DNA from: Ostreococcus lucimarinus
Lineage: Eukaryota
Assembly: GCA_000092065.1 (NCBI GenBank)
Contig: CP000590.1
DNA: 64,000 nt
Reading direction: 5' to 3' (one strand)
Below are positions 549 through 47,185 of the stretch, piece by piece. The position numbers and the translations under genes are program-made. Within the stretch, counting starts at the first letter, position 1. Each line of letters opens with the position of its first letter. Below the pieces are notes generated by a model that saw only the letters and a program-made list of their open reading frames with translations, searched no databases and had not been told where the DNA came from.

Positions 549-1304
549 ATGTTCGCGTGCGCGTCCATCTCGCGCGCGAGCGCCGTCGCGTCCTTGACGC
601 CCGCGCGCGCCGCCGTCGACCGAAGTTCGACGAGATCCATCGGCGTCCACGCGCGCGCGTCCGGTGACGCCCCGTTGACGCACCTGCGCCCGTCCACCGC
701 GAATCGCGCGAATGAGATCGCGTTCGTAGCCGCGAAACCCGCGCCTGCGCCGCCGGTGAACAAGTTCCAGGAATTCGGTCGACAGTACTGGCCGGCGTTC
801 GCCGCGCTGGAGGGCGTGGCGCTCGTCGGCGCCACGGTGAACGGGATCATGTTGCGTAAACGGCGCGAAGAGATCGAGCGATTGAACGCGCAGATGCGAG
901 GAATCATGGCGAAATTGGACGAACGCGACAAAACGCTGACGAGCGAGGATGGAGATTCTGAGGCGAGCGAGGCGCTGAACGCGGCGAAATCCGCGCTGGC
1001 GAGCGACCACAACGACCGCGCCGCGGATTTATTCCTCAAGGCGATCGACGTCGCCACTCGCGCAGAAGACGGCGCGGCGGAGTTGAGTGCTCGCCGTGGC
1101 TACGCGATGGCGCTCGCCGCGCAGCGCAAGTTCGCCGACGCCGCGAGCACGCTCGAGGCGTATCTCCCGCGTTCCTCGGCTTTGAACCAGCGCGAAGGCG
1201 ACTCCGCCGTGTACGGTTTACTCGGGGACGTCTACACCGATCTCGGGGCGTTCGACAAGGCCGGCGCCGCCTACGACGCATGCATCAACGTCATGGACGA
1301 CTAG
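549..1304 (+). CDS. Putative plastid-targeted membrane protein: Ser/Ala/Arg-rich transit-peptide-like N-terminus, one TM helix (YWPAFAALEGVALVGATVNGIML), a coiled coil, and a C-terminal TPR-like region. The architecture resembles FLU-type proteins (tentative).
   Basis: A single ORF with good coding periodicity. The N-terminus is hydroxylated and basic, with no acidic residues for ~70 aa, followed by one hydrophobic helix. The C-terminal 120 aa are Ala/Leu/Tyr-rich helical repeats. The family call is by architecture only. Confidence 0.35.
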   Translation: MFACASISRASAVASLTPARAAVDRSSTRSIGVHARASGDAPLTHLRPSTANRANEIAFVAAKPAPAPPVNKFQEFGRQYWPAFAALEGVALVGATVNGIMLRKRREEIERLNAQMRGIMAKLDERDKTLTSEDGDSEASEALNAAKSALASDHNDRAADLFLKAIDVATRAEDGAAELSARRGYAMALAAQRKFADAASTLEAYLPRSSALNQREGDSAVYGLLGDVYTDLGAFDKAGAAYDACINVMDD

Positions 1305-1725
1305 CCCTTCCGCCCGCTTCCGCGTAGCCTTTCTTAGCCGACGCCTCGCCAGAGTTGCGAGCCGAAAAAAATCTTAAGTCTATCCACACAAGATATTTTT
1401 CTCCAGCCTTTGACCCGCGCGCGCGCGCCCCGCACAGCGACGCGCGCGCGTCTCGAGCGCGCATCGCGAAGCGACACTCGCGCGCACCGCAGCAGCGCGC
1501 GCGAGCGTCATGTCCGCCGCGCGCGCGCTCGCGTCGAGCGCGAACGCGAAGAATATTCAAACGTCCCGGAGGTCGTTATCATGCGCGCGCGAACGATCGC
1601 GCGCGGTGATGCGCGCGCGACGCGAACGCGCGGTCGAGAGCGGTGAAGTGTTGAATGTGAACGTCGTTGGGTCGGTGACGGGACGACGCGCGACGCGTGA
1701 GCGGCGTGGGGTGCGCGCGAGCGCG

Positions 1726-2850
1726 ATGATGGGCGACGGGGACAGAGGCGAGCGCGGCGAGCGGGACGACGGCGAGGAGGACGAGGAGGTTGGAGGTCGG
1801 CGACGGCGACGAAGGGCGAGTCGAGGGCTTAATAAAGATGCGTCGGCGCGCGATGAGAAAAAAGAAGGGAAGAAGAAGACGCAGACGATGGCGGCGGAGT
1901 CCAAGGGCGAAGCCGAGACGGAGGCGCCTAGCGACGCCGAAGGGGGGTCGACGGCGGATTTCATCGAAAATGTAGTCGTGGATGCTCGCGAAGAGAGCTT
2001 TGCGTTGAAGAAGAAACGCATGGAATTGATTATCGAAGAGAAAGAGTGGGATTTAGAGTCACCGACGTCGAGCGAGGATGAGAAAATGATCAAGCTTGTG
2101 GAGTACGTTAATGCGGTGGAGGCGTTCAAGGAGTTGTGCTCGAGCGAGGTGCCGAACACCGTGGGCGATTTGCTCGGGCAGTACGTGACTGTGTATCACT
2201 TGGATTGTGATTCTCCAGGGTACGACGAGGCGCTCGCGTTTCTCGGAATCGATCCGGACGAGGACGAAGATGAGGACGAGCGCGACATGGAGGCCTGGCG
2301 CCGCGCGACAGCAAGCTTTGACTCTGGGTCCATGGACGAGGACGACGACTCTGATGACGAAGACGAAGACGATGAAGGCGAATACACGATTGAGATTTCG
2401 TACGGTCGCGGGGACGATTTCGATCCGATCAAAGGCTTGCACTGCGCGCAAGACGTCGAAGGCAACTGGCGTTGGCTCGAGGATGATTTAGGGAGAACTC
2501 TGTCAATGAAACCATTCGGAGAATTCACGCCCAAGCTCATGTCGGTCGAGTACATGCTCAAGGTTGGTTTGAACGTCAACTCACTTCACGAAGAAGTCGA
2601 TCCACTCGAGCTTCTTAACTTTTCAGGGTGCAAGTCGTGGGAGGACACGCTGAGAGCGAGTCAAGAGGCGACAGCGGCATTGCGCCAACTCGAAGACGAT
2701 GGATGGAAGGTGGATACTCGGAGCTGGTGCAACGAGCAAGATCATCTCATCGTGGTGAAGGAGCTCGTGCCATTACGCACGATGTCATTCGTCGACGGGT
2801 CAGTCACGGAGGACGAAAACGAAGAGGGACAGGAGGACGAAGATCGTTAA
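1726..2850 (+). CDS. Hypothetical highly acidic protein (Asp/Glu-rich stretches, conserved-looking C-terminal globular part). The start is uncertain: ATG at 1726, alternative ATG at ~1887.
   Basis: Long ORF 1510..2850. The 5' part of that ORF is Arg-rich GC junk. The first ATGs are at 1726 and ~1887, and the body has a non-random composition (W, Y, K, N present). No family recognised. Confidence 0.4.
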   Translation: MMGDGDRGERGERDDGEEDEEVGGRRRRRRASRGLNKDASARDEKKEGKKKTQTMAAESKGEAETEAPSDAEGGSTADFIENVVVDAREESFALKKKRMELIIEEKEWDLESPTSSEDEKMIKLVEYVNAVEAFKELCSSEVPNTVGDLLGQYVTVYHLDCDSPGYDEALAFLGIDPDEDEDEDERDMEAWRRATASFDSGSMDEDDDSDDEDEDDEGEYTIEISYGRGDDFDPIKGLHCAQDVEGNWRWLEDDLGRTLSMKPFGEFTPKLMSVEYMLKVGLNVNSLHEEVDPLELLNFSGCKSWEDTLRASQEATAALRQLEDDGWKVDTRSWCNEQDHLIVVKELVPLRTMSFVDGSVTEDENEEGQEDEDR

Positions 2851-2955
2851 ACAAGTATCACCGCACGCAAGCACGCGCCGCACACGCATGTACCCAACTA
2901 TGTTGTAACGTAACTGAAGCGGCTGTATCAAATCTAAAATTACATTTTCAGTACA

Positions 2956-5900
2956 CTAGTACATAGCGTCTCGCTGAGACACCTTGAGGAGTACGAACGC
3001 CAACGCGAGATAGCACGACATGATGGTGAACAAAACCGTGATGTCGTGGGAAAATACCTCGTGCGTCGAGCCAAAACTAAAGAACTTCAGTACCTCTTTG
3101 CCATCCACGGGGACTTTGATGGGACCTTCTTGCGGAGGCGTATCGGTCGGTTTAGAATCGATTAGCTTCGGCGTAAAGTAAAATGTTCCAGCGTCGAGGA
3201 ACTCGTTTATCAAGAGCGCCTCGAATGCGTAGTTGACGAAGGATAAATCCTCGAGCCATGTCACCGCGACCGATCCGCCCGAATGAGGATCTTGCTTGTT
3301 CAGTAAGAATCCGCCGCACAGAATGGATATCAACAAGGCAAGAAGACCAATGACATTTGCGGAGGCGTTACTCGGACTGACGATACCGACACACATGCAC
3401 AGCGCCGACGCGGCGACATTGGTCATGATCAAAATCAACGCACAGCACAGTGCATTCGTCAGGTTGGCGTGCAAACCTACCATCCAATAGGTAATGAATG
3501 CAAACAATAGGGGAGGAGTGACGCGTAAAATCACGACATCGAAGAGGACGACGGCTGTGAAGTACGCATTGGTGCCGTACACACCGCTCGCTCGCTCGCG
3601 TCTGAACAGAATTTGATCCTCTTTCCATATCGGCAAAGAGGAGAGCGACATGAGCGTCAGATACAGAATGATGAAGAATAAACTGCCCATCCTATTTTGT
3701 ATCCCGCCCGTGTCTCGTCCACTGTTCCAAAAAATCAAGCCGAGTGCGATTGACATGCCTGCCGTAGACGCAAAGTGCAACATCAACAAAAACGGATGAC
3801 GAAAGGTCACTCTTGCGAGCCGTTGCCAAAGCAAGCACACTTGCTTGACGTACGGACTAACGTATTTCGGTACGATCAACGGTGGTTCATCGGAATCTTC
3901 GTATCGAATCGTCAAGGTGTCCGCGATGAGCAACGCGCTTTCGGCGACCTCGCTCTCGGTAAACGCTTGCACCATGCGCTTTACGTCCGAGCGGGGACTC
4001 TTCAGCACGACGTCCAGCATGTAGTCCGCGATGTGCAAGTCCGCGGAAGGCAAGCTGACGAACGACATGGAGTTGAAGTGCGCTGAAGCGAGTGCAGACG
4101 GACCAGAGTAAACAACGCTCCCGTCGCCACTCAGTACCAGGACGCGATCAAGCAGTCGGAAAATGTCTGGTCGTGGCTGGTGAATGCTCAGCAATACCGT
4201 CGTGCCCATCGCGCCGAGACCGGACAGGATATCCACTACCTTGGCGGCGTTCGTACTGTCCAGCCCAGTCGTGGGCTCGTCCAGGAACATAATGCCAGGG
4301 CTCATCAAAAGCTCCGTGGCGATGCTCACACGGCGCTTTTCTCCACCGGACAAGCCGCGCTGGAACTGGTCACCAATGAACGAGTCAGCGAGCTTCTCAA
4401 TGCCGAGAATCTGCATCGTCGAGTCCACGCAACGACAAATATCATCTAAAGGCGTTTCGGCTGGAAGCCGAAGTTTGGCGTGAAACAACAAGTGCTCGTA
4501 TACAGTTGCGTTACCTGGCAAAACATCGTCTTGGGTAACGTATCCGCTCAGGCGACGAATCTGAGATGACACCATGGGTTGTCCGTTTACACGAATGTCG
4601 CCGCGAATAACATGCGTGGATGGTGCTCGCCCTGCAAGAATATCCAACAGCGTCGTTTTCCCAGCACCCGATGGTCCAAGCATGGCGAATAAATCAGCAT
4701 GTTGCTCATGACAGGTGATCGAACCATCGCGCGACGTTCCTATGGAGTTCACTGGGCCAGCCACGCCCGTGACGTTCTTCAACACCCGGCGCCCAGACTT
4801 CAACGTGCACACTACGTCAACCCATGACAAGATGTACGGCTCGCGCGCATTGCCACTCTCGCTTAAAAGTGAAAGTGATAGATCTTCTTCATCAAGAGCG
4901 CTCGAAAACAATCCATTGCTTTCGGTATTGTCTAATACGAGACTGTCGGTTGGTTGATGTGCAAATCGCTCGCGCGCATCGGCAAAGTCATCCGCAACAT
5001 CTACTATTTGGGACGTGCCACTATTATTGTAACCATCCACCCTTCCATCGAACGAATCTGAGTCTTGCGCGGAGGTTTTTAGGAAGACGTAACAACCAAA
5101 TGCAAAGAGGAAGCCTTCGGCGATCAGAAACGTGACATCCCAGGGCGCGAGATACGGATGAAACCCGAACGTGAAAAGCACTTTCTCGCCGGGGACTGGA
5201 ATTTGCTTTGGAAGCTTCGGTCCGCTGGTGCCACTGGCGTTGCTCCAGCTTTGAGTAAGCGTGAATGTCAATGGATTGTCGACAAACTCGTTGACGACGA
5301 GCGCCTCGTAGCCGTGACTTATGAAACTCAAGTCGGCGATCCAGCGTGCATACCACGGAATGTGGTCTTTGTTCAGCAAGAACCCCCCAAAAAGAATCGC
5401 GAGTAAAAAGCACAGCGAAGCAACCATGTTCGCCGCAGATACGTTCCGATTCGCGGCGCCGACCGCCATGCACAAACACGTAGCGACGATGTTCGTCAGG
5501 ATCAACACGAAGACAAATTTCAACAGATTCAACTGACCACCCTCATTCAAACCGATCATACCGTACGAGAAGAATCCGAAGAAAAACGGAGGCAGGACAC
5601 GCATTGGTAGCAGATCGAATAATAGCATGCTCACGAAATATGCATCTGCGCTGTATACTCGACTCGCTCTTTCGCTCTTGAAGAGTAAACGATCCTCCTT
5701 CCAAACCGGCAGCGAAGACAATGACATTAATGTCAAAAAGAGCAAGATGAAGAATAAACTGCCCATCCTATTTTGGATACCTCCTTGATTTGTACCACTA
5801 TGCCAGAAAATCCCACCGACACCGCAAGCGACGACGAAAGACGAAATGAAGTGCACGTAAATCAAAAATGGATGCCGGTACATTTGCCGGAGCAACCGTC

Positions 5901-8151
5901 CACAAAGAAGCTTGACTTGCGTTCTAAACGTCGCTGTGTGCTTCTTATCGACGTCGTCGATTGCATCGCCGTCAATAGAGAGCAAGCTTGGGGAGACGCT
6001 GAATCTTTGTGCGCACAGCTCCGTGTGCGTAACTTTATTTGTAGCCTCTATGTCGCTCTCGGCAAACGCTTGCACCATGCGCTTTACGTCCGAGCGGGGA
6101 CTCTTCAGCACGACGTCCAGCATGTAGTCCGCGATGTGCAAGTCCGCGGAAGGCAAGCTGACGAACGACATGGAGTTGAAGTGCGCTGAAGCGAGTGCAG
6201 ACGGACCAGAGTAAACAACGCTCCCGTCGCCACTCAGTACCAGGACGCGATCAAGCAGTCGGAAAATGTCTGGTCGTGGCTGGTGAATGCTCAGCAATAC
6301 CGTCGTGCCCATCGCGCCGAGACCGGACAGGATATCCACTACCTTGGCGGCGTTCGTACTGTCCAGCCCAGTCGTGGGCTCGTCCAGGAACATAATGCCA
6401 GGGCTCATCAAAAGCTCCGTGGCGATGCTCACACGGCGCTTTTCTCCACCGGACAAGCCGCGCTGGAACTGGTCACCAATGAACGAGTCAGCGAGCTTCT
6501 CGATGCCGAGAATCTGCATTGTCGCTCGAACACGCTTGCGAATTGTACTTTGCCTTGTTTCGGCTGGAAGCCGAAGTTTGGCGTGAAACAACAAGTGCTC
6601 GTATACAGTCGCCGTTCCGGGCAACACGTCCTCGTCGATGACATATCCGCTTACCGCTCGCATATCTTCCACTGACGCGACTTTACCATTCATGAATATT
6701 TCACCAGCGCTGTCGTATACGTTGGAAGACAGTCGCCCGGACAGTCGATCGAGCAAGGTGGTTTTTCCAGCGCCGGAAGGTCCCATGAGCGCGCACATGC
6801 CGCCACGAACGTCGTCCATCCTTCCAGCCATGCCTGAAACGTCATTCAAAATACGTTTTCTCATGCCCTTCACCTCTACATACAGCCCACGCCACGTCAA
6901 TATCGTCGATGGTCCATCACGCGGTTGCATTGTCGATTCGAATCGCCGTACAGCTTCGATAGCTCCTCCCACCACGTCTTCGGTGTCTGCGTTCATGTCA
7001 ACGTCGTGTTCAAAGTACCGAAGACCGGCCTCAACTTTGACGTACGCCCAAGCGGCGCTCACTAAAACTAAAACAATCAATACCATCACGGCTCTTGTGA
7101 TCGTGTCCCCGGTCCAATACACAGGAGGGTCGAAATGGATCGGGCACGACCCGTCGCTGTCGACCATCTCGTACACGCAGCTCCCAGTGTGACACGTCAG
7201 CGCAAGCGTCGGAATGACGCCACTTTGTGTCCAATAACACACATTCGACCCGTCTTCACGAGTGCTATTCACACCGCACCAAAATTTCATCCCCTTGTTG
7301 CCTGGCGTCGACAGCGGATTGCAGGGATGTTGCCAGTACTTTTGCCCGGGGGCGTCTGGAATGCTCCCGCACCCAAAAGCGTTCCGCCCCGGGCACGGCT
7401 CCACCCAAGTTGGCGGACACGACACCACGCCCGCGCTACAATCATACACTGCACACGTCTCCGTCGCAGGCAACGGGTCTATGCACGACGTGATCGTTAA
7501 CGAACACTGCGTAAAGTTCCCGTCCCACACCGCTGGAGCCGCGTACTTGTACTTATCCGGCACATCCAAATTTTGATCCTGTCGCGGCATCCCCGCGTAC
7601 TCCACGACTTCAATTTTGTATTTCGACCGTCCATTCGACACCGTGCCCGGTAATACTCGCATATCGATCCTCGTCTTCGGCTGGAACTTGCAAAACGAAT
7701 CTGTCTTCGCGTCGCCGCCGCATCCGCACGAAAACGTCTTCCCGCCCGCTCCTCCCTCTACGTCCCCGATCGGTCTCAGCTCCTCTTCCGTCGGCGTCCA
7801 GCACTTCGACGTACACGCGCTCGCGCTTCTCAGGACGCCATTCACCTTTCTCTGTCCACACACCGATCGCGTCTGACACGCGTCGCACGTCGTCCCGCGC
7901 CAACCGTCGCCGCAACCAAGATTCGGATCCCCTTTCACCGCGCACGACGCGCAGTTCTCGGGATGCGGCGACGACGTTGCGATCGGCATCGTGCTTCGAG
8001 CGCACGGTGGCGACGTCGTCGCGATGGCGTTCGCGCACTGCGCGTGGGAGTCGGCTATCGAGTTGGCTTTTGCGCAGATTACCAGCGTCAATGCGGCGAC
8101 GAACGCGACGCGCACGACGCGCCGGCGCGCATTTCCGAGCGATGCGCGCAT
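2956..8151 (-). CDS. Full-size ABCG/PDR-type ABC transporter (NBD-TMD-NBD-TMD), 1731 aa, preceded by an N-terminal signal peptide, a ~330-aa cysteine-rich ectodomain and one TM helix.
   Basis: There are two Walker A motifs (GPSGAGKTTLLD twice), ABC signature LSGGEKRRVSIA twice, and two ABC-2-type membrane domains. The N-terminus MRASLGNARRRVVRVAFVAALTLVICAKA is signal-peptide-like and is followed by >40 Cys. ATG verified at 8149-8151 (cat on +). Confidence 0.85.
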   Translation of the reverse strand: MRASLGNARRRVVRVAFVAALTLVICAKANSIADSHAQCANAIATTSPPCARSTMPIATSSPHPENCASCAVKGDPNLGCGDGWRGTTCDACQTRSVCGQRKVNGVLRSASACTSKCWTPTEEELRPIGDVEGGAGGKTFSCGCGGDAKTDSFCKFQPKTRIDMRVLPGTVSNGRSKYKIEVVEYAGMPRQDQNLDVPDKYKYAAPAVWDGNFTQCSLTITSCIDPLPATETCAVYDCSAGVVSCPPTWVEPCPGRNAFGCGSIPDAPGQKYWQHPCNPLSTPGNKGMKFWCGVNSTREDGSNVCYWTQSGVIPTLALTCHTGSCVYEMVDSDGSCPIHFDPPVYWTGDTITRAVMVLIVLVLVSAAWAYVKVEAGLRYFEHDVDMNADTEDVVGGAIEAVRRFESTMQPRDGPSTILTWRGLYVEVKGMRKRILNDVSGMAGRMDDVRGGMCALMGPSGAGKTTLLDRLSGRLSSNVYDSAGEIFMNGKVASVEDMRAVSGYVIDEDVLPGTATVYEHLLFHAKLRLPAETRQSTIRKRVRATMQILGIEKLADSFIGDQFQRGLSGGEKRRVSIATELLMSPGIMFLDEPTTGLDSTNAAKVVDILSGLGAMGTTVLLSIHQPRPDIFRLLDRVLVLSGDGSVVYSGPSALASAHFNSMSFVSLPSADLHIADYMLDVVLKSPRSDVKRMVQAFAESDIEATNKVTHTELCAQRFSVSPSLLSIDGDAIDDVDKKHTATFRTQVKLLCGRLLRQMYRHPFLIYVHFISSFVVACGVGGIFWHSGTNQGGIQNRMGSLFFILLFLTLMSLSSLPVWKEDRLLFKSERASRVYSADAYFVSMLLFDLLPMRVLPPFFFGFFSYGMIGLNEGGQLNLLKFVFVLILTNIVATCLCMAVGAANRNVSAANMVASLCFLLAILFGGFLLNKDHIPWYARWIADLSFISHGYEALVVNEFVDNPLTFTLTQSWSNASGTSGPKLPKQIPVPGEKVLFTFGFHPYLAPWDVTFLIAEGFLFAFGCYVFLKTSAQDSDSFDGRVDGYNNSGTSQIVDVADDFADARERFAHQPTDSLVLDNTESNGLFSSALDEEDLSLSLLSESGNAREPYILSWVDVVCTLKSGRRVLKNVTGVAGPVNSIGTSRDGSITCHEQHADLFAMLGPSGAGKTTLLDILAGRAPSTHVIRGDIRVNGQPMVSSQIRRLSGYVTQDDVLPGNATVYEHLLFHAKLRLPAETPLDDICRCVDSTMQILGIEKLADSFIGDQFQRGLSGGEKRRVSIATELLMSPGIMFLDEPTTGLDSTNAAKVVDILSGLGAMGTTVLLSIHQPRPDIFRLLDRVLVLSGDGSVVYSGPSALASAHFNSMSFVSLPSADLHIADYMLDVVLKSPRSDVKRMVQAFTESEVAESALLIADTLTIRYEDSDEPPLIVPKYVSPYVKQVCLLWQRLARVTFRHPFLLMLHFASTAGMSIALGLIFWNSGRDTGGIQNRMGSLFFIILYLTLMSLSSLPIWKEDQILFRRERASGVYGTNAYFTAVVLFDVVILRVTPPLLFAFITYWMVGLHANLTNALCCALILIMTNVAASALCMCVGIVSPSNASANVIGLLALLISILCGGFLLNKQDPHSGGSVAVTWLEDLSFVNYAFEALLINEFLDAGTFYFTPKLIDSKPTDTPPQEGPIKVPVDGKEVLKFFSFGSTHEVFSHDITVLFTIMSCYLALAFVLLKVSQRDAMY
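3951..4416. repeat. Copy A of an intragenic near-identical duplication (NBD2 of the ABCG gene), ~466 bp, 2 mismatches vs copy B. A second identical 52-bp block lies at 4455..4506.
   Basis: Direct alignment of the sequence to 6054..6519 at a constant offset of 2103 bp. Identical ORF-track peptides (4092..4292 equals 6195..6395). Confidence 0.9.
6054..6519. repeat. Copy B of the intragenic duplication (NBD1 of the ABCG gene). The second block is at 6558..6609.
   Basis: Same as copy A. The flanking NBD sequence is only protein-level similar, not nucleotide-identical. Confidence 0.9.
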
Positions 8152-8313: not shown

Positions 8314-9861
8314 TCAGTCGAAGCTGCACCCTTTGATGCAAGTTCTTATGGCTTTCGCTTTTTCTCTCTCCACGAGCACGACTTTCTCTTGAACCATGTA
8401 AGCCTTCGCTTGACCTCCGCCGTCGGGCATGACCCACATGGGTAACTGCACGGTCGGCACGTCTTGAAGTTTCGCATCTTCGGCTTTGACCCATTTGTAT
8501 TTCGGAGTGAAATCGGGCTTGCCTCCGATGTAGTGGCGAGTGCCGTGTTTGACGGTGGCGGCTTCGTACGAATCGACGACGCGGCGAAAGGTCTGGAGCG
8601 AACCGAAGTGGTGCTCGATGGCTGCGTTCAGCGCGGCGTCGGCGTAGGCGTACAGCGCGGCGTCGCGAGTGGTGACATTCTTGATGGTCACTTCGAGCGC
8701 TTCTTTGTCTACCTTATCCACGTTAGTGCCGGTGTTGGAGAAGACGTACCGCAAATCCCGCACGCCAGCTATTTTCCCTACGACGTGCAGAAATTCGTTG
8801 AAACGTTCGGTAGTCCCGACAACATCAAACTGCCCCACGAGCGCCTCGACCCGCGCCCACTTTTCATCGCTCACCGTGATGCAGTCTTTCGTCCACTTAT
8901 CGTTTTTCTCATACGTCGGCGCGCGCAAGTGATGGACGCACTCCTCCCACAACAGCTCGCGCGTTTGCATATCCTGTTTCGTCGCCGCCCACTCGTGCAA
9001 GCTACGCCCCCACACGTTCTTCGTTGACTCCCCCGCTTGTTCTTTCTTTATTTCTTCCTCCATGCCATCGTGCACGTAATATGCGTAGTAACTCGCGTAC
9101 TGATCAACGGGTTTCCGCACCAAGTAGGACGTCGTCACCGAACACGAATCCGCAAACTCTTCCTTCATCGCCAACACATCCTCAAACACCACATTCGCGA
9201 AGTTCTGCGCGTTCCAACTATTTGGATAGTGCCCTCTCACCTCCACGAGCGTTCTCGGTGGCACTGCACGCGTGCCATTCACGTACGCTCTCGCCGCGTC
9301 CGTCCACGCCGTCTTCAGCGCCTCCCACTCTTCCCGCGAAGCGCCGTACGGTATCGGATACTCCCACTCACCGAGCACCGTCTGCCTTTCGAACCAAAAC
9401 CGCACCGTCGTCCCACCCGTTTTACTGACGTGTCTAAATAAGTGCAGCGCGCACGGCTCATCGCTCTTCGCCGTCGCCGTCGCCGTCGTCGTCGCGTTCG
9501 AAGTCGTCGTCGCCGCCGTCGCGTCCCGCTCGCCGACGCTCGCCGACGCCGTCTCCAACTCTCGCGCCGTCTCCACCGATCCATCCGCGCTCGTCGCGCC
9601 GGCGTCATCGCGCGCGTTCGACGACTCGTGAATGCTCTGTTCGGCGACGTCGAGCGCGACCGGGGCGCGCCAGACGAGCTCTGGTTTGGCTACGAAGACG
9701 GTTGAAGTAATCTGCGTTCGCGAGCTCGGCTCGACCGAGTCGCCGTCATCGAACGATTGCCGCTCGGCGCGCCAGCGGTGCGCGGATACGACGACGAGAA
9801 CGGCCAGGACGAGCGCGGCCGCGGCGCGAAAGGCGGTGAACCATCGCGCGCTAGCGCTCAT
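8314..9861 (-). CDS. Type II membrane (Golgi-type) carbohydrate sulfotransferase-like protein (Sulfotransfer_2-like).
   Basis: N-terminal signal anchor (FRAAAALVLAVLVVVSA), a Ser/Thr/Ala-rich stem, and the HVSKTGGTT motif typical of the 5'-PAPS-binding loop of HS2ST/HS6ST/CHST-type sulfotransferases. Start trimmed to ATG at 9861 (MSASARW), which also removes an overlap with the next gene. Confidence 0.55.
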   Translation of the reverse strand: MSASARWFTAFRAAAALVLAVLVVVSAHRWRAERQSFDDGDSVEPSSRTQITSTVFVAKPELVWRAPVALDVAEQSIHESSNARDDAGATSADGSVETARELETASASVGERDATAATTTSNATTTATATAKSDEPCALHLFRHVSKTGGTTVRFWFERQTVLGEWEYPIPYGASREEWEALKTAWTDAARAYVNGTRAVPPRTLVEVRGHYPNSWNAQNFANVVFEDVLAMKEEFADSCSVTTSYLVRKPVDQYASYYAYYVHDGMEEEIKKEQAGESTKNVWGRSLHEWAATKQDMQTRELLWEECVHHLRAPTYEKNDKWTKDCITVSDEKWARVEALVGQFDVVGTTERFNEFLHVVGKIAGVRDLRYVFSNTGTNVDKVDKEALEVTIKNVTTRDAALYAYADAALNAAIEHHFGSLQTFRRVVDSYEAATVKHGTRHYIGGKPDFTPKYKWVKAEDAKLQDVPTVQLPMWVMPDGGGQAKAYMVQEKVVLVEREKAKAIRTCIKGCSFD

Positions 9862-9922
9862 GGCGCGTTGCGCTGTGAGGCGCTCGCGCGCGGCGACTAC
9901 GACTACGTTACACCGAGGAGCG

Positions 9923-12025
9923 CTAGTCGCTCCAATCGGAATCGTCAGAATCACCACCGAGGTGTGATCCAGACAGGTCTAATTGCGCGGCTATGGCGGA
10001 GTTGAGCTCGCCGAGACCTTTGTTCGGTGGCGGTGGCGGTGGCGGTTTCTTTGGCGGCGAAATCGAGCGCGGCGGCGGCGGCGGCTTGGGCGGTTTGCCG
10101 ACGCTCGGGGGTGGCGACGGAGGAATGTTACGCGAGGATGGCGGCGGTGGTGGCGTTGGCGCTGGAGGGGGTGTTGTACCGCGCGAGGGCGTCGGCGAAG
10201 TCTCCGAATCAGAGATCACCGAGGACGTCGCGGATGTGAAATCGCTCGCGCTCGCTTGTTTCTTGCGAAGAGAAACGCCAGCTTGGATCGACGCCATGAG
10301 CATAGCGTGCGGATCGTTTGGATTCGGTGGATTTGGTGGTGATGGTGCAGCGTTCTCGTCCGGTGGCGCGTGCCCGCCAGGCGGTGGTGGAGGGGGAGGA
10401 GGTGGTGGAGGGGGAGGCGGAGGGGGAGCGCTCGGCGCGCTCGGCGCGCTCGCCTGCATCGAAGCAGGAGGCATCGCCACAGGGGCAGAACTTCCAGGGC
10501 GTGGAGGCACAGGACGTCCTTCTGCTAAGGCCTGGCGCGCCGTTGCTTTCCATTGTTTGTAAATAGCTCTCTCCTCCTTCGCCGCGCGGCGTCTCGCGCG
10601 ATCCGCCCGACGCTCCTCACGCTCGATGCGCGCACGTTCCATCGTCGTCAGCGGTCTCGATGGTGTTTCCGCCGCGAGTTCAGCGGCTTGCCACAGGGCA
10701 GTGTTTTCGCCGTTCGCGTTTGACGCAGGAGCGTCGCGATTAGAGGCATCGTCATCACGAAGTAACATGCCCCACATCTCTGCTTCCATCTTCGCCAAGT
10801 CCGCGCTCGCCCTGGCGAACGCTCGCAAGCCGCGCGTGAGCGCATTTCCTGACAACCGGTGAAATCTAGGAAGCTCGTCGCGCATGCGCTCGACTATCAT
10901 GTCGTATCGCTCCTTTGCCTCTTTCATCAAAGCCTCGGCGGCGAGACAATCCGGATCCACCGTGGCGAGCGCTCTGCCTTTTTGGCGAACCACCTCGTCA
11001 TACCGATCGCACGTGATTTCGTAGTGTAAGAGCGTTTCTGCACGATCTTCAAACGTCTCTCGCACCGCACCGAGCATCCGCAAGCAATCCTTGAACTCCC
11101 GCTTGAGCGCTTTCATGTGTTCAACGACTTGCAGCTCGTGCGCGTCCTCGCCAGTCAACGATTCTGCGCAATCTGCAAATGCACCGAGCACGGTTCCCAA
11201 CGACACGCACTTACTTCTACGCGCCAAAGGTCGACCCCAACCTGACTCACACTCTCCCATCGCGCGCGCGCTCTTTCCTAGTTCCAACAGCCTCGTCGCG
11301 TTCACACGCTGTTCCAACTGTTTCATGTACTCTCTCGCGCTCTCTCGAAAGCCCACAATCTGGTCCTCAATCTTCTTCGTGTACTCAATCACTTGCAAAT
11401 ATTGCGGGTCTTCATCCTTGAGCACGCTCGATATCGTCCGCGTGCTGCCGAACATCTGCCCGAACCACGAGGGATTCGCCGCGCTCGGGCTCGACGTTGA
11501 AGCGCCGCCGCCGACCGCCGCCCCTAACATCCGCCGCGCCATCGCATCGACGAACGCCCCTCGATCATTCTCCGTGAGAAACATCAACAGCGCTGTGGAG
11601 TTATACAGCATCGGGTGCTCGCCACATCGCGTCAAAAACTGCACGAGATGTTGCCTTCGCTTTTCGCACGCGTCGCCATCCAACGCCGTCGTCCGCGCGC
11701 GTTCGCCCTCCAATTCCGGCGCCTTCGGCAGCGGCGGGATCACCGCTCCCGGATACGACTCCCGCAATCGCGTTCGCAGCGTGACAAAGTCTCCGTACCG
11801 CCGCTGGACGTCGAACGTGGCGTGTCCATCGCGTAATTCACTTCGGCATTGCAAAATGTATTCTCTCGCCGTCGCGCGCGTTTTGACGCTGAACGCCACG
11901 TGCGCGTCTCGCGGATCGCTCGCGACGAGCGTAGGTGCGGTGAGTTGTATCTTCACCGCCCCGGGTTGTATCTTCTTGTCCCGGCGCGACGACGACGCGC
12001 GCGTGGACGCGACGGATGGCGCCAT
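9923..12025 (-). CDS. Sorting nexin with a PX domain and a BAR-like helical region, followed by a long proline-rich tract and a C-terminal WH2-like actin-binding motif.
   Basis: PX hallmarks RRYGDFVTLRTRL and PPLPKAP. A helical ~250-aa region follows the PX domain. There are poly-Pro runs (PPPPPPPPPPPPPPPP) and LMASIQAGVSLRKK (WH2 consensus LxxxIxxGxxLKK). The ATG at 12025 (MAPSVAST) is the likely start, and the ORF extends to 12091. Confidence 0.7.
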   Translation of the reverse strand: MAPSVASTRASSSRRDKKIQPGAVKIQLTAPTLVASDPRDAHVAFSVKTRATAREYILQCRSELRDGHATFDVQRRYGDFVTLRTRLRESYPGAVIPPLPKAPELEGERARTTALDGDACEKRRQHLVQFLTRCGEHPMLYNSTALLMFLTENDRGAFVDAMARRMLGAAVGGGASTSSPSAANPSWFGQMFGSTRTISSVLKDEDPQYLQVIEYTKKIEDQIVGFRESAREYMKQLEQRVNATRLLELGKSARAMGECESGWGRPLARRSKCVSLGTVLGAFADCAESLTGEDAHELQVVEHMKALKREFKDCLRMLGAVRETFEDRAETLLHYEITCDRYDEVVRQKGRALATVDPDCLAAEALMKEAKERYDMIVERMRDELPRFHRLSGNALTRGLRAFARASADLAKMEAEMWGMLLRDDDASNRDAPASNANGENTALWQAAELAAETPSRPLTTMERARIEREERRADRARRRAAKEERAIYKQWKATARQALAEGRPVPPRPGSSAPVAMPPASMQASAPSAPSAPPPPPPPPPPPPPPPPGGHAPPDENAAPSPPNPPNPNDPHAMLMASIQAGVSLRKKQASASDFTSATSSVISDSETSPTPSRGTTPPPAPTPPPPPSSRNIPPSPPPSVGKPPKPPPPPRSISPPKKPPPPPPPNKGLGELNSAIAAQLDLSGSHLGGDSDDSDWSD

Positions 12026-12114
12026 CGCGCGCGCGAATTTGAAGTCGGTTGCGCGCGGGGGCGGGCGCGGGGGCGTCTCCGCGAAACGCATTGATTTGAT
12101 TGCAGCTACGAGGG

Positions 12115-15563: not shown

Positions 15564-15754
15564 CGTCGTCCCGTATCGATGCGCGTTCGCGATCGATCGT
15601 CTCGCGTCGGTCGTCGGTCGTCGGTCGGCGGTCGGCGCGCGCGCGATCGATCGGTCGGCGGTCGCGTCGCGCGCGGCGCGTCGTCGTGTGCGGTCGCGTC
15701 GTCGGCGCGCGATCGATCGATCGATCGGATCGGGCGGATCCATCGATGGATGCG

Positions 15755-15915
15755 CCGCCGACGACGAAATCACACGCGCGCGGCGCCGACGACGAAATCA
15801 CAAATCACACGCGCGCGGCGCCGACGACGAAATCACACGCGCGCGGCGCCGACGACGAAATCACAAATCACACGCGCGCGGCGCCGACGACGAAATCACA
15901 CGCGCGCGGCGCCGA
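15755..15915. repeat. Imperfect tandem repeat (units of ~28/35 bp: cgacgacgaaatcac[aaatcac]acgcgcgcggcgc, about 5 copies) in the divergent intergenic region between Tic40 and PPEF. Adjacent (gatc)n and (gtcg)n microsatellites lie at 15600-15735.
   Basis: Seen directly in the sequence. It yields repeated peptide motifs in the spurious ORF 15686.., which I discounted. Confidence 0.85.
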
Positions 15916-16150
15916 CGACGCGAATCATCCATCGATCCGCCGACCGACGGACGGCCGGGGCGGCGACGCGACGCGCGCGCGCGACACGACGGCGCGCGCC
16001 GGGACGACGACGCGCGACGCGCGAACGCGCCGTCGCGCGACGACGCGCGAGAAACGCGAGAAACGCGAACGGGCGCGACGCGATTCGACCGCGACCGCTA
16101 AGGAAGGACGGGGCGAACGCGCGCGAATCGACGGCGACGCGACGACGACG

Positions 16151-18485: not shown

Positions 18486-19217
18486 ATGCGCGCCGTCGAC
18501 GCGCGCGCACCGCGCCGCCCCATCGCGCGCGTCTCGGCGTCGCCGCGCCGTCGCGCGTTCGCGCGCGCTTCGGGCCCGAGCGCGCTCGCCGGCACGGACT
18601 TGCCCGGCGGTGGACAAGAGTTGGTCGAATACGCCTCGGAGGGTAATCTGCGTCGTCTGAACGAGCTTCTCGACGGCGCGTACGCCGCGGACCCGCCGGA
18701 CGCGTCGTCGAAGGCGATACGAATCGCGCAGTTGCGCACGGCGGCGCAGCGCGCGATGGCGTGCGGGCAGGTGGAGACTCTGAAGCGCGTGCTCGAGTTC
18801 GGCGACGCGCGAGGCGTCGACTTTGGCTTTGGTTTGGGCAACGGAAGGCTCTGTGCGATCGAGGCGTGCGGACGAGGGCAAGACGACGTCGTGCGAGTAC
18901 TTTTTAAAGACGGCCGAGTGAGCACGGAGGTGGTGAATGGGTACGGGAGAACGGCGCTGCTCGAGGCCGCTCTGGAAAATAAACTCGAGTGCGTTCGCGC
19001 GTGCCTGGAGGCGGGCGCGAACGTTGATTTCACGACGAAGATGCAGGGGAACACAGCCGCGCATCTCGCAGCGCAGAGTGGACACGTCGAGGTGTTGAAT
19101 CTGCTTCGCGACGCGGGCGCGAGGATGGATATCGAGCGCTTCGGCGACTTGAAGACGGCGCTGCAGTTGCATCGAGAGGCGATCGCGAGAACGATGAAGA
19201 CGATGCTCGACAGATGA
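18486..19217 (+). CDS. Small ankyrin-repeat protein (~243 aa).
   Basis: C-terminal ankyrin repeats (GRTALLEAALENKLECVRACLEAGANVDF.. and GNTAAHLAAQSGHVEVLNLLRDAGA). The ORF track entry 17976.. overlaps the PPEF 3' end in another frame. I trimmed it to the first ATG after the PPEF stop (18486, MRAVDARAP). Confidence 0.5.
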   Translation: MRAVDARAPRRPIARVSASPRRRAFARASGPSALAGTDLPGGGQELVEYASEGNLRRLNELLDGAYAADPPDASSKAIRIAQLRTAAQRAMACGQVETLKRVLEFGDARGVDFGFGLGNGRLCAIEACGRGQDDVVRVLFKDGRVSTEVVNGYGRTALLEAALENKLECVRACLEAGANVDFTTKMQGNTAAHLAAQSGHVEVLNLLRDAGARMDIERFGDLKTALQLHREAIARTMKTMLDR

Positions 19218-34181: not shown

Positions 34182-35624
34182 ACAATCACCATCACTAGCG
34201 ACATAGCCCCCGAATATCGACGTAGTCACCGCGAGTCCAATCGCGCCACCGTCTCCGCGCACATCCGCAGCGCGTCCGTCGCGCTCACCGCCGCGCCCTC
34301 CGCGCGCCGTCCTCCCATCACTCGCGTCTCGACGATCCCTCCCGCGCGATCGACGTCCCATCCCGCCCGCGCCGCGTCGTCGCTCGCCGTCGCCGCGTTC
34401 GTCGCCGTCCGCCTCCCCAGCGTCGCCGCCTCCATTCGCGCGTACGCCCGTCCCGCGCCCTCGATCGCGCGCGCCCGCGTCGCGACGAGCGCCTCCTCCG
34501 CCGCCCGCGCCGTCGCGCGCGAGCGCCACGTCGCGTCCCGCAGCGTCGTCGTCGCGCGCGCGTCGTCCGACGTCCACAGCGCGGCGATCGCCTCGCGCGT
34601 CGCGCGCGCGTCCTCGTCGTCCGCGTCGCTCGACGCGCGCTCGATCGCGAACCGCGCGAGCTCGAGGTCGTCGCGCGCGACCGCGCGCAGCGCGCGCGCG
34701 ACCGCGCCGTCGCCGTCGCCGTCGCCGTCGCGCGTCATCGTCGTAACGACCCGGCGTCGACGAGTGGCGCGCGCGACGCAGAGCGACGCGCGATGCGCGC
34801 GGTCGCGACGGCGCGCGCGACGCGTTCGCCGCGCGCGGTCGTCGCGTCGCGACGCGCGCGCGCGCGCGCGACGCGCGACGACGACGACGCGACGACGACG
34901 CGCGCGCGATTCGCGCGAACGGCGCTCGCGACGAGCGCGCTGATGACGATGGGCGCGCGCGCGGCGCGCGCGGCGAGCGCGAACGACGCCGTGCTCGCGG
35001 CGCTCGCGCGACGCGACGCGACGGCGCCGGACGGCGCGACGGCGCGGCGACTGCGCGGCGACGTCGACGAGGCGACGCGCGCGAGGACGCTCGCGCTCGC
35101 GGGGTGCGTCGCGACGCGCGACGCGACGACGCGATGACGCGCGCGACGACGCGATGACGCGAGACGCGAACGATGGGACGACGGCGACGCGCGCGGGACT
35201 GACGACGCGCGCGGGGCGACGATAGGGACGTCGACGGCGCGCGACGCGCGCTGCGAGGCGAAAATCTATCGAAACTCCGCGCCGACGCGACGACGGTGAC
35301 GAGACTCGCGAGCGAGGACGGCATGCGCGCGTCTAGGAACGGATTGACGCTCAGGGACGTGACGCTGGCGCTGGACGCGTTCGACGACGCGCTTCGAGCG
35401 GAGGGCTTGGGCGCGAAGTCGGCGTCGAGCGACGACGTGCGGCGAACGGCGGACGATTTGATTCGCACGCTCGAGCGTCTATCCGGGACGTCGGATCGAC
35501 GCGGCGGTTGATTTGTTTTGAGATTTATTCCTTTCGCGCGCGATTCGACGCCGAGCGACGCCGAGCGATTCCGAGCGATTCCGAGCGTCGTCTCGTCCCG
35601 CACACCGCCGCTCGCGAACCGACG

Positions 35625-36554
35625 ATGCTCGCGCGCGCCCCCGTCGCGCCGATCGCGCGCGCTCGACCTCCCGCGCCGCGCGCCCGCGCGCCCGTCGCTC
35701 GCGCCGCGCCGTCCGACGCGTCCGCGGTCGTCGCGTCGCGTCGCGTCGCGCTCGCGCTCCCGCTCGCGCTCGCCGCGCTCGACCGCTCGACCGCGCGCGC
35801 GGCGGACGCGCCGCGCGTCCTCGTCGTCGGCGCCACGGGCCAGACCGGCGCGCTCGTCGTCCGCGAGCTGTCGCGCGCGGGCAGGGCGCGCGCGATCGTC
35901 GCCGGCGCGCGATCGGCGGCGAAGGCGACGAAGCTCGGCTTGGACGCGCTGCCGGGGGTGGAGATTCTCGACGGCGTCGACGTCACGCGCGGCGTCGACG
36001 CGCTGGCGCTCGCGTTCGAGGGCTTCGACGTCGTCGTCGTCGCCACGGGATTCGTGCCGGGAAATCCGCTGAAGATGAACGCGGCGGCGCGCGCGGTGGA
36101 TAACGAGGGCGTGTGCGCGGTGGCGGACGCGGCGAAGCGAGCGAACGTCAAGCGCGTCGTGCTGATATCGTCCATCCTGACGAACGGACCGGGATTCGGG
36201 GCGCAGGATACCGCTGGATACAAGATCACGAACGCGTTCGGAAGGGTGCTCGAAGAAAAGCTCGTGGGGGAGAATCACCTGCGCGCGAGCGGCGTGCCGT
36301 GGACCATCGTTCGACCGGCTGGGTTGAAGACGGACGCGCCGAAAAATCCGCTCGTCGTCACCGGGGAAGACGTGATGACGAGCGGTGAGATCAGCCGCGA
36401 GCTCGTCGCGCGCGTGATGGTGGAGGCGGCGTTCGACGCGCGCGCGGAGGGTAAAGTTTACGAAATCGCGGAGAGCGGTTCCTTCGTCGGCGGCGATCCC
36501 GCGGGCGCGAAGACGTTCGCCCTCGATTCCGACCCGGCGTCGTGGTTCGCGTAA
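35625..36554 (+). CDS. NAD(P)-binding Rossmann-fold protein (NmrA-like/atypical SDR), probably plastid-targeted.
   Basis: VLVVGATGQTGALVVRELSRAG dinucleotide-binding motif. The transit-like N-terminus is MLARAPVAPIARARPPAPRARAPVA... The antisense 855-aa ORF 33990..36557 is rejected as a GC artefact. Confidence 0.7.
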   Translation: MLARAPVAPIARARPPAPRARAPVARAAPSDASAVVASRRVALALPLALAALDRSTARAADAPRVLVVGATGQTGALVVRELSRAGRARAIVAGARSAAKATKLGLDALPGVEILDGVDVTRGVDALALAFEGFDVVVVATGFVPGNPLKMNAAARAVDNEGVCAVADAAKRANVKRVVLISSILTNGPGFGAQDTAGYKITNAFGRVLEEKLVGENHLRASGVPWTIVRPAGLKTDAPKNPLVVTGEDVMTSGEISRELVARVMVEAAFDARAEGKVYEIAESGSFVGGDPAGAKTFALDSDPASWFA

Positions 36555-36629
36555 CATTTTCTATTCCGACCCGGCGTCGTGGTTCGCGTAACATTTTCTA
36601 TTCCGACCCGGCGTCGTGGTTCGCGTAAT
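36526..36629. repeat. 37-bp tandem repeat x2.8 (attccgacccggcgtcgtggttcgcgtaacattttct). The first copy encodes the last 6 codons plus the stop of the NmrA-like gene, and copies 2-3 lie in the 3' UTR.
   Basis: Seen directly: the units at 36526-36562 and 36563-36599 are identical, and the third is a partial diverged copy. Confidence 0.9.
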
Positions 36630-46151: not shown

Positions 46152-46904
46152 CTACTTTTTCTTTCGCTTCATCTCCGCCACGCGCTTGCGCACGAAGGCT
46201 GCCCTGAGCTTTTCGCGCGCGCCCTCGAGCGCTTCGCGCTCGCGTCGCTTCGCCGCCTCCACCGCGTCCCGTTCGCGTTCCGTCTCGCGCTCGATGTCGA
46301 ACACCACCCGCCGCGCCTCCGCCGCGCGTTCCGCGTCGCGCTCTTCGTTTTCGATCTCGCGCTCCCACCTCCGACGCTCGAGCTCGCGTCGCGCGTCGTC
46401 CGAAACCATGTCGCCCGCCGACGCGACGGCGTCGCGCGCGTCTCGCGCGCCGCGCGCCTCCACCGCGCCCCCGTCCCGTCCCTCCCGAGTCTTCGCCGCG
46501 AAATCCACCTCGTATTCGCTCGCCTCGCCCAGCGTCTCGCGTCCGCCCGCGACGAGTCGGTCGTACAGCGCCGCCTTTTTCTCCAGCGCCGCCGCCCGCT
46601 CGACGCCGCCGCCGCGCCGCGCCGCCCGCCGCGCCTCCTCGTCCCTCGCCGCGCGCGCCCGCACGCCCGCGTTCGAGCGCTCCGTCGCGCGTCGTTTTCG
46701 CCCGACCGCTTCGCGCGCGTCGCGCCCGCGTCGCGACGCTTCGCGCGCGCGCATCATCGTCGCGCGCAGCGTCACGAGCGACGCGTCGTCGACGCGCTCG
46801 ATCGCGCGCGCCGCGCGCGGCATCGCGGACGACGACGCGCGCCATCCGTAATCGACCCCGCGCGCGTCCGCGCGCGCGCCGCGATCGCGCGCGCCGCTCG
46901 ACAT
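46152..46904 (-). CDS. CCDC174-like charged coiled-coil protein.
   Basis: LEKKAALYDRLVAGG..EYEVDF parallels the conserved CCDC174 N-terminal motif (LEEKAKLYEKMTKGD..YLVDF). Glu/Arg-rich coiled coil with a lysine tail MKRKKK. Start uncertain. Confidence 0.45.
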   Translation of the reverse strand: MSSGARDRGARADARGVDYGWRASSSAMPRAARAIERVDDASLVTLRATMMRAREASRRGRDAREAVGRKRRATERSNAGVRARAARDEEARRAARRGGGVERAAALEKKAALYDRLVAGGRETLGEASEYEVDFAAKTREGRDGGAVEARGARDARDAVASAGDMVSDDARRELERRRWEREIENEERDAERAAEARRVVFDIERETERERDAVEAAKRREREALEGAREKLRAAFVRKRVAEMKRKKK

Positions 46905-47185
46905 CGCGCGTCGACGAGTGTCACAGCGCGACGGCTCGAGCGTCGCGTCGACTCGACGCCCGATGCCTCGCGCGCGGCGTCGCGCGCGCGCCGCGATCGC
47001 GATCGCGATCGCGGCGCTCGCGCTCGAGACGCGCGGCGCGCGCGGCGACGACGACGCGCGCGCGCGCGCGGTTCGGTGCGTCGACGCGATGGCGGACGCG
47101 ACGACGACGACGCGACGCGACGACGACGCGACGCGCGAAGACTGACGACGAACGACGCGACGCGACCGATCGCAGCGAACGCGTG

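Follow-up and report, generated by a model that had tools for sequence, protein, structure and literature searches.

Concerted evolution, very probably by intragenic gene conversion, of the catalytic halves of both nucleotide-binding domains in a full-size ABCG gene of Ostreococcus lucimarinus

The stretch of Ostreococcus lucimarinus DNA analysed here (the window; 64,000 nucleotides of contig CP000590.1, GenBank assembly GCA_000092065.1, 61% G+C, no Ns) carries a gene for a full-size ABCG transporter whose two nucleotide-binding domains (NBDs) are encoded, over their catalytic second halves, by almost the same DNA. The coordinates of the open reading frame (ORF) and of its elements are compiled in Table 1. 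In the encoded protein, Pfam detects ABC_tran (6.8e-48) and ABC2_membrane (4.6e-74) twice each; the NBD precedes the ABC-2 type transmembrane domain (TMD), which is the arrangement that characterizes ABCG proteins, and the domain order NBD1-TMD1-NBD2-TMD2 corresponds to the reverse topology. The nearest solved structures are Pdr5, Cdr1, ABCG2, ABCG25, ABCG1, and ABCG5/8, with the second half of Pdr5 (1.9e-80) and ABCG2 (1.5e-76) as the best matches in the PDB. None of the PDR accessory domains ABC_trans_N (PF14510), PDR_assoc (PF08370), and PDR_CDR (PF06422) was found by Pfam in the window protein; in the protein search, they are present in the plant and fungal PDR matches and missing from the matches P0001 to P0006. 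Because it is devoid of these PDR-specific domains, the window protein is, judged by its domain content, a full-size ABCG protein and not a classical PDR.

Table 1. Positions of the ABCG gene, its repeat copies and motifs, and related features at other loci
Feature	Position	Strand	Details
Full-size ABCG ORF	2956..8151	minus	single, intron-less, 1731 aa
N-terminal region	7042..8151	minus	aa 1-370; outside the repeat, part of the ABCG gene
Walker A, NBD1 (GPSGAGKT)	6760..6783	minus	canonical; in unconverted, diverged N-terminal half of NBD1
Short block, NBD1 copy	6557..6609	minus	aa 515-532, ATVYEHLLFHAKLRLPAE; just after Q-loop
Unconverted island, NBD1 counterpart	6520-6556	minus	encodes …TRQSTIRKRVRA
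Main block, NBD1 copy	6053..6519	minus	aa 545-700; end of helical subdomain to NBD C-terminus, HIADYMLDVV...VKRMVQAF
NBD1-copy motifs	LSGGEKRR 6433-6456; Walker B/D-loop 6361-6396; SIHQP H-loop 6277-6291	minus	Walker B/D-loop is IMFLDEPTTGLD
Inter-repeat interval	4507..6052	minus	TMD1, linker, and N-terminal half of NBD2
Walker A, NBD2	4654-4677	minus	canonical; in unconverted, diverged N-terminal half of NBD2
Short block, NBD2 copy	4454..4506	minus	aa 1216-1233; 53-nt exact match to NBD1 copy
Unconverted island, NBD2 version	4417..4453	minus	encodes …TPLDDICRCVDS
Main block, NBD2 copy	3950..4416	minus	aa 1246-1401; 2/467 nt differ from NBD1 copy
NBD2-copy motifs	signature 4330-4353; Walker B 4258-4293; H-loop 4174-4188	minus	
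Collapsed forms	e.g. L002:5001-8093		proteins P0007-P0017; loci L002-L005
Bryopsis homogenised intron	L018:4759-4885 and 10424-10551		
Volvox homogenised intron part	L015:10898-10933 and 18652-18687		last 37 nt of the intron

The repeat consists of a main and a short block, both of which are present in two copies at the same offset of 2103 nucleotides (nt). Position-by-position comparison of the main block gave 465 identical nucleotides out of 467, the mismatches being at 3960 and 4399; beyond the next mismatch, at 4417, another four bases match, and about 32 to 37 diverged bases separate the main from the short block, which is exact over its whole length. Past the short block, similarity fades by ~4548/6651 (86% over 95 nt). 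Outside the blocks, identity at this offset is at the background level, and the flanks of the two halves are 52 to 57% identical in a codon alignment. Given a background identity of ~55%, the chance of obtaining at least 464 matches in 466 positions is ~7e-117. By sequence, the short block aligns with the helix following the Q-loop, which is the "hot-spot helix" of ABCG2. A first-pass annotation of the window had described a 466-bp block with two substitutions and a constant 2103-bp offset, and both the repeat search and the direct comparison reproduced it; its placement of the copies in NBD1 (6053-6609) and NBD2 (3950-4506) of one 1731-aa ABCG ORF agrees with our ORF and Pfam analyses, and its remark that the halves are similar only at the protein level just outside the blocks is borne out by the low identity of the flanks and their saturated synonymous sites. 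The second block that it gave as 52 bp was recovered as an exact match and turned out to be one base longer.

The protein search returned a 99%-identical protein of the same length (P0001), five full-length orthologues (75 to 80% identical, 1734 to 1784 aa), and a series of proteins of only 1029 to 1088 aa, to which we return below. One full-size form, P0005, stems from the transcriptome of Ostreococcus sp. RCC789. Remoter full-size homologues were found in metagenomes, among them a Bathycoccus-like contig (49% GC) and a Micromonas-like contig (68% GC), and in Bryopsis, two Volvox species, Ostreobium, Ectocarpus, and Mesostigma. For comparison at the DNA level, we used the window gene (WIN), its counterpart in a second strain (L001), and the genes of four further species (L006, L010, L011, and L014), all from independent assemblies; L001 and a further locus, L002, are 99.4 to 99.8% identical to the window. 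All six genes have the intragenic repeat, at an offset of 2085 to 2103 nt.

Within the 462-nt block of the codon alignment, the two copies of one gene differ at 3 (WIN), 2 (L001), 1 (L006), 0 (L010), 6 (L011), and 25 positions (L014), the tract of L014 being shorter at its 3' end. In the same block, orthologues from different species differ at 92 to 118 positions; their proportion of synonymous differences (pS) of 0.63 to 0.77 is saturated, and that of nonsynonymous differences (pN) is 0.03 to 0.11. In the flanks, the paralogous halves have a pS of ~0.75. A sliding-window analysis gave a paralogue pS of ~0.74 before the block, 0.00 to 0.01 inside, and 0.66 to 0.88 after it, and an orthologue pS of ~0.7 in all windows. 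Two checks that the first-pass annotation had suggested thus came out in favour of conversion: synonymous divergence between the halves is close to zero inside the block and saturated outside, and in the orthologues from five Ostreococcus species NBD1 and NBD2 are not diverged, each gene having a homogenised block of its own. A TMD segment (IQNRMGSLFF…) that served as a control has a pN of only 0.13 and yet a paralogue pS of 0.85; a conserved protein sequence is thus not enough to make synonymous sites identical.

The alignment of the protein halves revealed species-specific substitutions that are shared by both NBDs of the same gene, such as RGI, SSDGN, and SSHFHSMSFVSMSSS in L010, GAEGS and SSLAS in L006, and ADCY in L014. 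In neighbor-joining trees, the block sequences cluster by species, and the N-terminal parts of the NBDs as well as the TMDs cluster by half. Between the two strains of the window species, gene position 1803 differs: each strain has one base in both of its copies, the window strain a C and L001 a T. The paralogue divergence of ~0.4 to 0.6% compares with a strain divergence of 0.57% over 11 kb. With two strains and one site, this is suggestive of conversion being recent and ongoing in the window species. G+C at third codon positions is 0.67 to 0.76 in the block versus 0.46 to 0.64 in the flanks, which weakly suggests GC-biased conversion. The extent of homogenisation varies around the main block. 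Homogenisation of the short block is seen in the window species, is incomplete in three others, and is absent from L011. The island of 13 codons between the blocks is half-specific in five Ostreococcus species (paralogue identity, 38 to 62%), with partial conversion in RCC789 and complete conversion in the Bathycoccus-like homologue.

The pattern extends beyond Ostreococcus. Self-comparison of all full-size matches for the longest run of identical residues between NBD1 and NBD2 gave 180 aa in Bathycoccus-like proteins, 33 to 86 aa in Micromonas-like and other Mamiellophyceae-like proteins, 63 aa in Bryopsis, 81 aa in both Volvox species, and 196 to 260 aa in three unassigned metagenome proteins. 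In every homologue having such a run, the core of signature, Walker B, and H-loop lies inside it. No comparable run was found by this comparison in fungi or in land-plant PDRs. The corresponding DNA repeats are 552 nt (99.5% identity) in the Bathycoccus-like, 311 nt (92%) in the Micromonas-like, 265 nt (98%) in the Volvox carteri, and 306 nt (93%) in the Bryopsis gene. In Volvox and Bryopsis, where the copies are 5.7 to 7.8 kb apart in the genome assemblies, intron DNA is included. The Volvox tract takes in the last 37 nt of the upstream intron and extends exactly to the point where the NBD2 copy has an intron of its own; the Bryopsis halves share a whole intron of ~130 nt at ~90% identity, and the preceding exon is far less alike. 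Since intron DNA has been homogenised, the process acts on DNA and not on protein or mRNA; RNA-mediated homogenisation was considered and rejected. In both genera, the intron lies directly before the codons of the GGEKRR signature, at the same position in both halves. Its position seems to be older than the internal duplication, or to have been copied along with it.

How old is the duplication itself? A neighbor-joining tree of the N-terminal part of the NBDs (92 columns) was too poorly resolved for dating, and the TMDs were used instead. In the TMD tree, the first TMDs (T1) of the Mamiellales are monophyletic with a bootstrap support of 100% and the second TMDs (T2) with 92%; T1 and T2 group together in 3%, and those of Volvox never do. 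From this topology it follows that the duplication predates the split of the Ostreococcus, Bathycoccus-like, and Micromonas-like lineages. The core of the NBDs either has been evolving in concert ever since or has re-entered conversion repeatedly.

In sum, the copies within a genome are closer to each other than to their orthologues, their identity extends to neutral sites, and their flanks keep the old divergence, as is characteristic of concerted evolution. We consider it very probable, on the strength of sequence comparison, that an ancient duplication of a half-transporter was followed by repeated intragenic gene conversion of the catalytic halves of the NBDs. Gene conversion had been proposed in the first-pass annotation and is supported by the near-zero pS in the block, the saturated flanks, and the clustering of the blocks by species; the recent event that it had in mind is better replaced by concerted evolution that is ongoing and older than the radiation of the Mamiellales.

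In our model, the full-size ABCG gene would have originated from an internal duplication of a gene for an NBD-TMD half-transporter, and the DNA that encodes the signature, Walker B, the D-loop, the H-loop, and the remainder of the NBD would have been homogenised again and again by non-reciprocal recombination, i.e., by ectopic conversion within the gene between direct repeats that lie 2.1 kb from each other. A break in one copy would most likely be repaired from the other copy, on the same or the sister chromatid and without crossover. In this way, the copies would diverge jointly between species and stay near-identical within each genome. The identical segment may be the preferred substrate for further conversion, and its persistence may also be due to the ability of both NBDs to work with the same catalytic core. 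Tract boundaries may be set by heterology, by copy-specific introns and indels, and, where the halves have become specialised, perhaps also by selection. Losses by crossover or single-strand annealing, which would remove 2103 nt and leave an in-frame product of 1030 aa, would normally be purged by selection.

The halves are predicted to be alike in their ATP sites and unlike in a few other respects. In Pdr5 and Cdr1, the NBDs are asymmetric and one of the ATP sites is degenerate. This type of asymmetry is not seen in the window protein: both NBDs have the canonical ATPase motifs (GPSGAGKT, LSGGEKRR, IMFLDEPTTGLD, and SIHQP). Because the signature, Walker B, D-loop, and H-loop are the same in both NBDs and Walker A is canonical in each, the two ATP sites should be nearly symmetric, like those of a homodimeric half-transporter. 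The sole motif asymmetry seen is the absence of the Q-loop Gln from NBD1 (YVIDEDV, 6625-6651), in contrast to NBD2 (YVTQDDV, 4522-4548), which has kept it. In an alignment to Pdr5, the Gln of NBD1 is replaced by D in the window protein and by A in other Ostreococcus species; alignment to ABCG2 presumably places the position in the same way. The Bathycoccus-like and Micromonas-like homologues have the Gln in both NBDs, and the Q-loop asymmetry, which is located just beyond the converted tract, is genus specific. Along with an insertion of 13 residues upstream of Walker A in NBD2, the loss of the Gln indicates some specialisation of the two halves.

Several points weigh against this interpretation or limit its reach. 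Its support is wholly comparative and no conversion event was directly observed, and the structure of the window is supported by its recurrence in further assemblies of this and related species, not by raw reads. Support for the deepest nodes of the TMD tree is weak (42% for T1 and 21% for T2 of the core chlorophytes); a single origin across all Chlorophyta may be inferred. In the self-comparison of full-size matches, no comparable identical run was found in Ostreobium (P0040), P0033, P0037, Ectocarpus, or Mesostigma. Since some members of the clade are devoid of identical runs, homogenisation is not obligatory, and it may have come to an end in places or have originated several times. Finally, neutral, self-perpetuating conversion fits the data equally well as selection for identical cores.

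The proteins of 1029 to 1088 aa deserve separate treatment. P0010 (1030 aa) equals the window protein minus the inter-block residues (1731 − 701 = 1030) and is encoded, as an identical protein, at the same syntenic locus of four independent short-read contigs. L002 equals the window with a precise deletion of 2103 nt, with 99.85% and 98.9% identity on either side; the missing DNA is the inter-repeat interval plus one copy of the repeat. Such collapsed forms, which come from public metagenome assemblies (among their sources are JGI 3300017781 and 3300032011 and ENA ERZ27250827 and ERZ922654), amount to at least eight protein variants in the window species and occur in three other species (P0015, P0016, and P0017). 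They may be real, that is, in-frame deletion alleles that segregate in populations with a mixture of 1731-aa and 1030-aa transporters, in addition to conversion. The product would consist of the N-domain, the N-terminal half of NBD1, the shared block, and TMD2, a complete NBD-TMD layout, and the same recombination is expected to cause, as a by-product, some loss of DNA between direct repeats of 466 nt; the at least four independent contigs with an identical protein and the occurrence in several species also speak for this possibility. However, the collapsed forms lie on both major haplotype backgrounds of the window species, each of which is also found in full-size contigs, and hence do not form a separate lineage, which favours an artefact without proving it. 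Furthermore, the collapse is found in every species examined, on contigs named k141 and k127, which is a pattern of systematic assembler error; the reciprocal form with three copies was not seen among the matches of the protein search; and a spontaneous deletion would need a high frequency to dominate an assembly. Diagnostic single-nucleotide polymorphisms show that the switch from the copy-1 to the copy-2 state falls inside the identical stretch; this is predicted for an allele as well as for a collapse and does not discriminate between the two. Because the ~440 exactly repeated bases exceed read and k-mer lengths, these forms most likely arose when assemblers skipped the loop between the repeats, and we regard segregating deletion alleles as unlikely. 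A broader variant, to which we give an equally low probability, combines real and recurrent loop-out alleles with clade-wide, ancient homogenisation that selection for a symmetric ATPase core would have kept; the core would then have been homogenised since before the Mamiellales, possibly since before the split of Mamiellophyceae and core chlorophytes, and Ostreococcus populations would carry transporters of both sizes.

Far less probable is an artefact in the window itself, in which the true locus would be half-size or a recent tandem duplicate and a mis-join or consensus polishing would have created the repeat. The collapsed forms, which lack the inter-repeat interval and occupy the same syntenic locus on many contigs in public data, could be read in this way. 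However, the full-size 1731-aa form is present on at least 25 contigs of the window species (P0129 alone on 20), the 1736-aa orthologue of a sister species on scaffolds of up to 307 kb, and the full-size form also in the RCC789 transcriptome. The segment containing TMD1 and the N-terminal part of NBD2 (B) is flanked by the repeat (R) on both sides, and the only consistent order is A-R-B-R-C. The homologues of Bryopsis (on a 4.6-Mb contig) and Volvox carteri (from a genome assembly) share the homogenised core at their much larger copy spacing, intron DNA included, and polishing cannot have introduced the substitutions of each species into both of its copies across independent projects. The mis-assembly of a recent tandem duplication, offered as an alternative in the first-pass annotation, is contradicted by flanks that diverged anciently and by the same architecture having been recovered from numerous metagenome assemblies, from a transcriptome, and from distant relatives in two genome projects.

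Least probable of all is that extreme purifying selection (on protein, codon usage, or an RNA or DNA element) or recent re-duplications in each lineage took the place of conversion: no other part of the protein is as conserved as the block (orthologue pN, 0.01 to 0.14), but the synonymous sites of the block are saturated between orthologues (pS, ~0.7) and its nucleotides hence unconstrained, the equally conserved TMD segment has saturated paralogue pS, and introns were homogenised as well, while independent re-duplications would not keep architecture, offsets, and diverged flanks across species, and a domain replacement copied from the other half would be gene conversion anyway.

Some observations on the gene and its surroundings are added here. 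The N-terminal region has no Pfam match; it comprises a signal-peptide-like start, a Cys-rich stretch of ~320 aa, and one transmembrane helix (aa ~354 to 372), after which NBD1 follows. In the Bathycoccus-like, Micromonas-like, Bryopsis, and Volvox homologues, NBD1 likewise follows an N-terminal extension of similar or greater length (Walker A of NBD1 at aa 424 to 623); a luminal or extracellular N-domain is unusual among ABCG proteins. The ABCG gene has a G+C content of 54% versus the mean of 61%, and no 2-kb bins of the window have a lower G+C content than those at 2001-6000 (52%). The neighbouring ORFs at 8314-12091 (minus strand) and 549-2850 (plus strand) are syntenic across Ostreococcus contigs; the neighbours are a 722-aa PX/Vps5-BAR sorting-nexin-like protein, ORFs of 547 and 446 aa without Pfam domains, and a 251-aa TPR protein. 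Tandem repeats are present at 36526-36628 (37-nt unit, 2.8 copies, 100% identity) and 15752-15920 (63-nt unit, 2.7 copies, 99%), and degenerate CG-rich short repeats (CGCGCG/CGACG-like units) with 70 to 75% GC at 34700-35220 and 46700-47170. The scans of the window for tRNAs, tandem repeats, and composition and the Pfam analysis of the neighbouring ORFs revealed nothing that bears on the intragenic repeat.

Concerted evolution by ectopic conversion is known from bacterial tufA/tufB, the human gamma-globin genes HBG1/HBG2, and ribosomal-protein paralogues of yeast. The ABCG gene resembles these cases in near-identity that includes synonymous sites, sharp tract edges, clustering by genome, orthologous flanks, and the risk of deletion by crossover; it differs in that the partners are domains of one polypeptide in one ORF, 2.1 kb apart, that only the catalytic second halves of the NBDs are converted, and that the phenomenon recurs across several green-algal classes. 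Internal repeats that are homogenised within one gene are known from polyubiquitin and from kringle and other tandem domain arrays, which likewise evolve in concert by recombination or conversion. These, however, are arranged head to tail and change in copy number by unequal crossover, whereas the ABCG gene has exactly two dispersed copies with 1.6 kb of diverged coding sequence between them, conserved in order and number. Some ABCA genes of protists are also said to have unusually similar NBDs. Homodimeric human ABCG2 (PDB 6eti) has, like the window protein, identical catalytic cores and two canonical, symmetric ATP sites; unlike ABCG2, which pairs with itself, the fused gene would keep a partial symmetry by DNA copying, and its Walker A/Q-loop halves and TMDs have diverged.

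Within the same transporter subfamily, conversion has been suggested between paralogous Pdr5-like PDR genes of hemiascomycetes (PMC2763886). There, too, conversion was invoked for unexpected similarity, but the case concerns separate genes of tandem arrays and was inferred from protein similarity, not the two NBDs of one protein. A phylogeny of plant ABCG proteins includes Mamiellophyceae-specific, full-size "V2-type" proteins (PMC8359288), which are, like the window protein, distinct from the land-plant PDR type and may belong to the same family; the passages searched do not mention a homogenisation of the NBDs. Our literature search yielded, apart from this phylogeny, only cases of conversion between separate genes. 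It found no account of NBD1/NBD2 homogenisation within an ABCG gene, and being limited to the library searched, it is no proof of absence. The mechanism is textbook knowledge; the case itself is apparently undescribed.

For annotation, the 466-nt intragenic repeat matters since short-read assemblers emit from it a 1030-aa "half-size" transporter that is probably false; public protein sets contain such chimeric, in-frame NBD1/TMD2 entries many times, from at least four Ostreococcus species. Phylogenetic trees of the NBDs of such ABCG proteins would falsely imply recent or independent duplications. Beyond this, the gene offers a clean natural case of domain-limited concerted evolution within one gene, replicated in many lineages and equipped with built-in controls, i.e., flanks that have diverged, orthologues whose synonymous sites are saturated, and introns that have been homogenised, and it is usable for studying the lengths, boundaries, and GC bias of conversion tracts in haploid picoalgae. 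For the transporter family, it indicates that a fused full-size ABCG protein can hold a homodimer-like, symmetric core while the Walker A/Q-loop halves and the membrane domains diverge.

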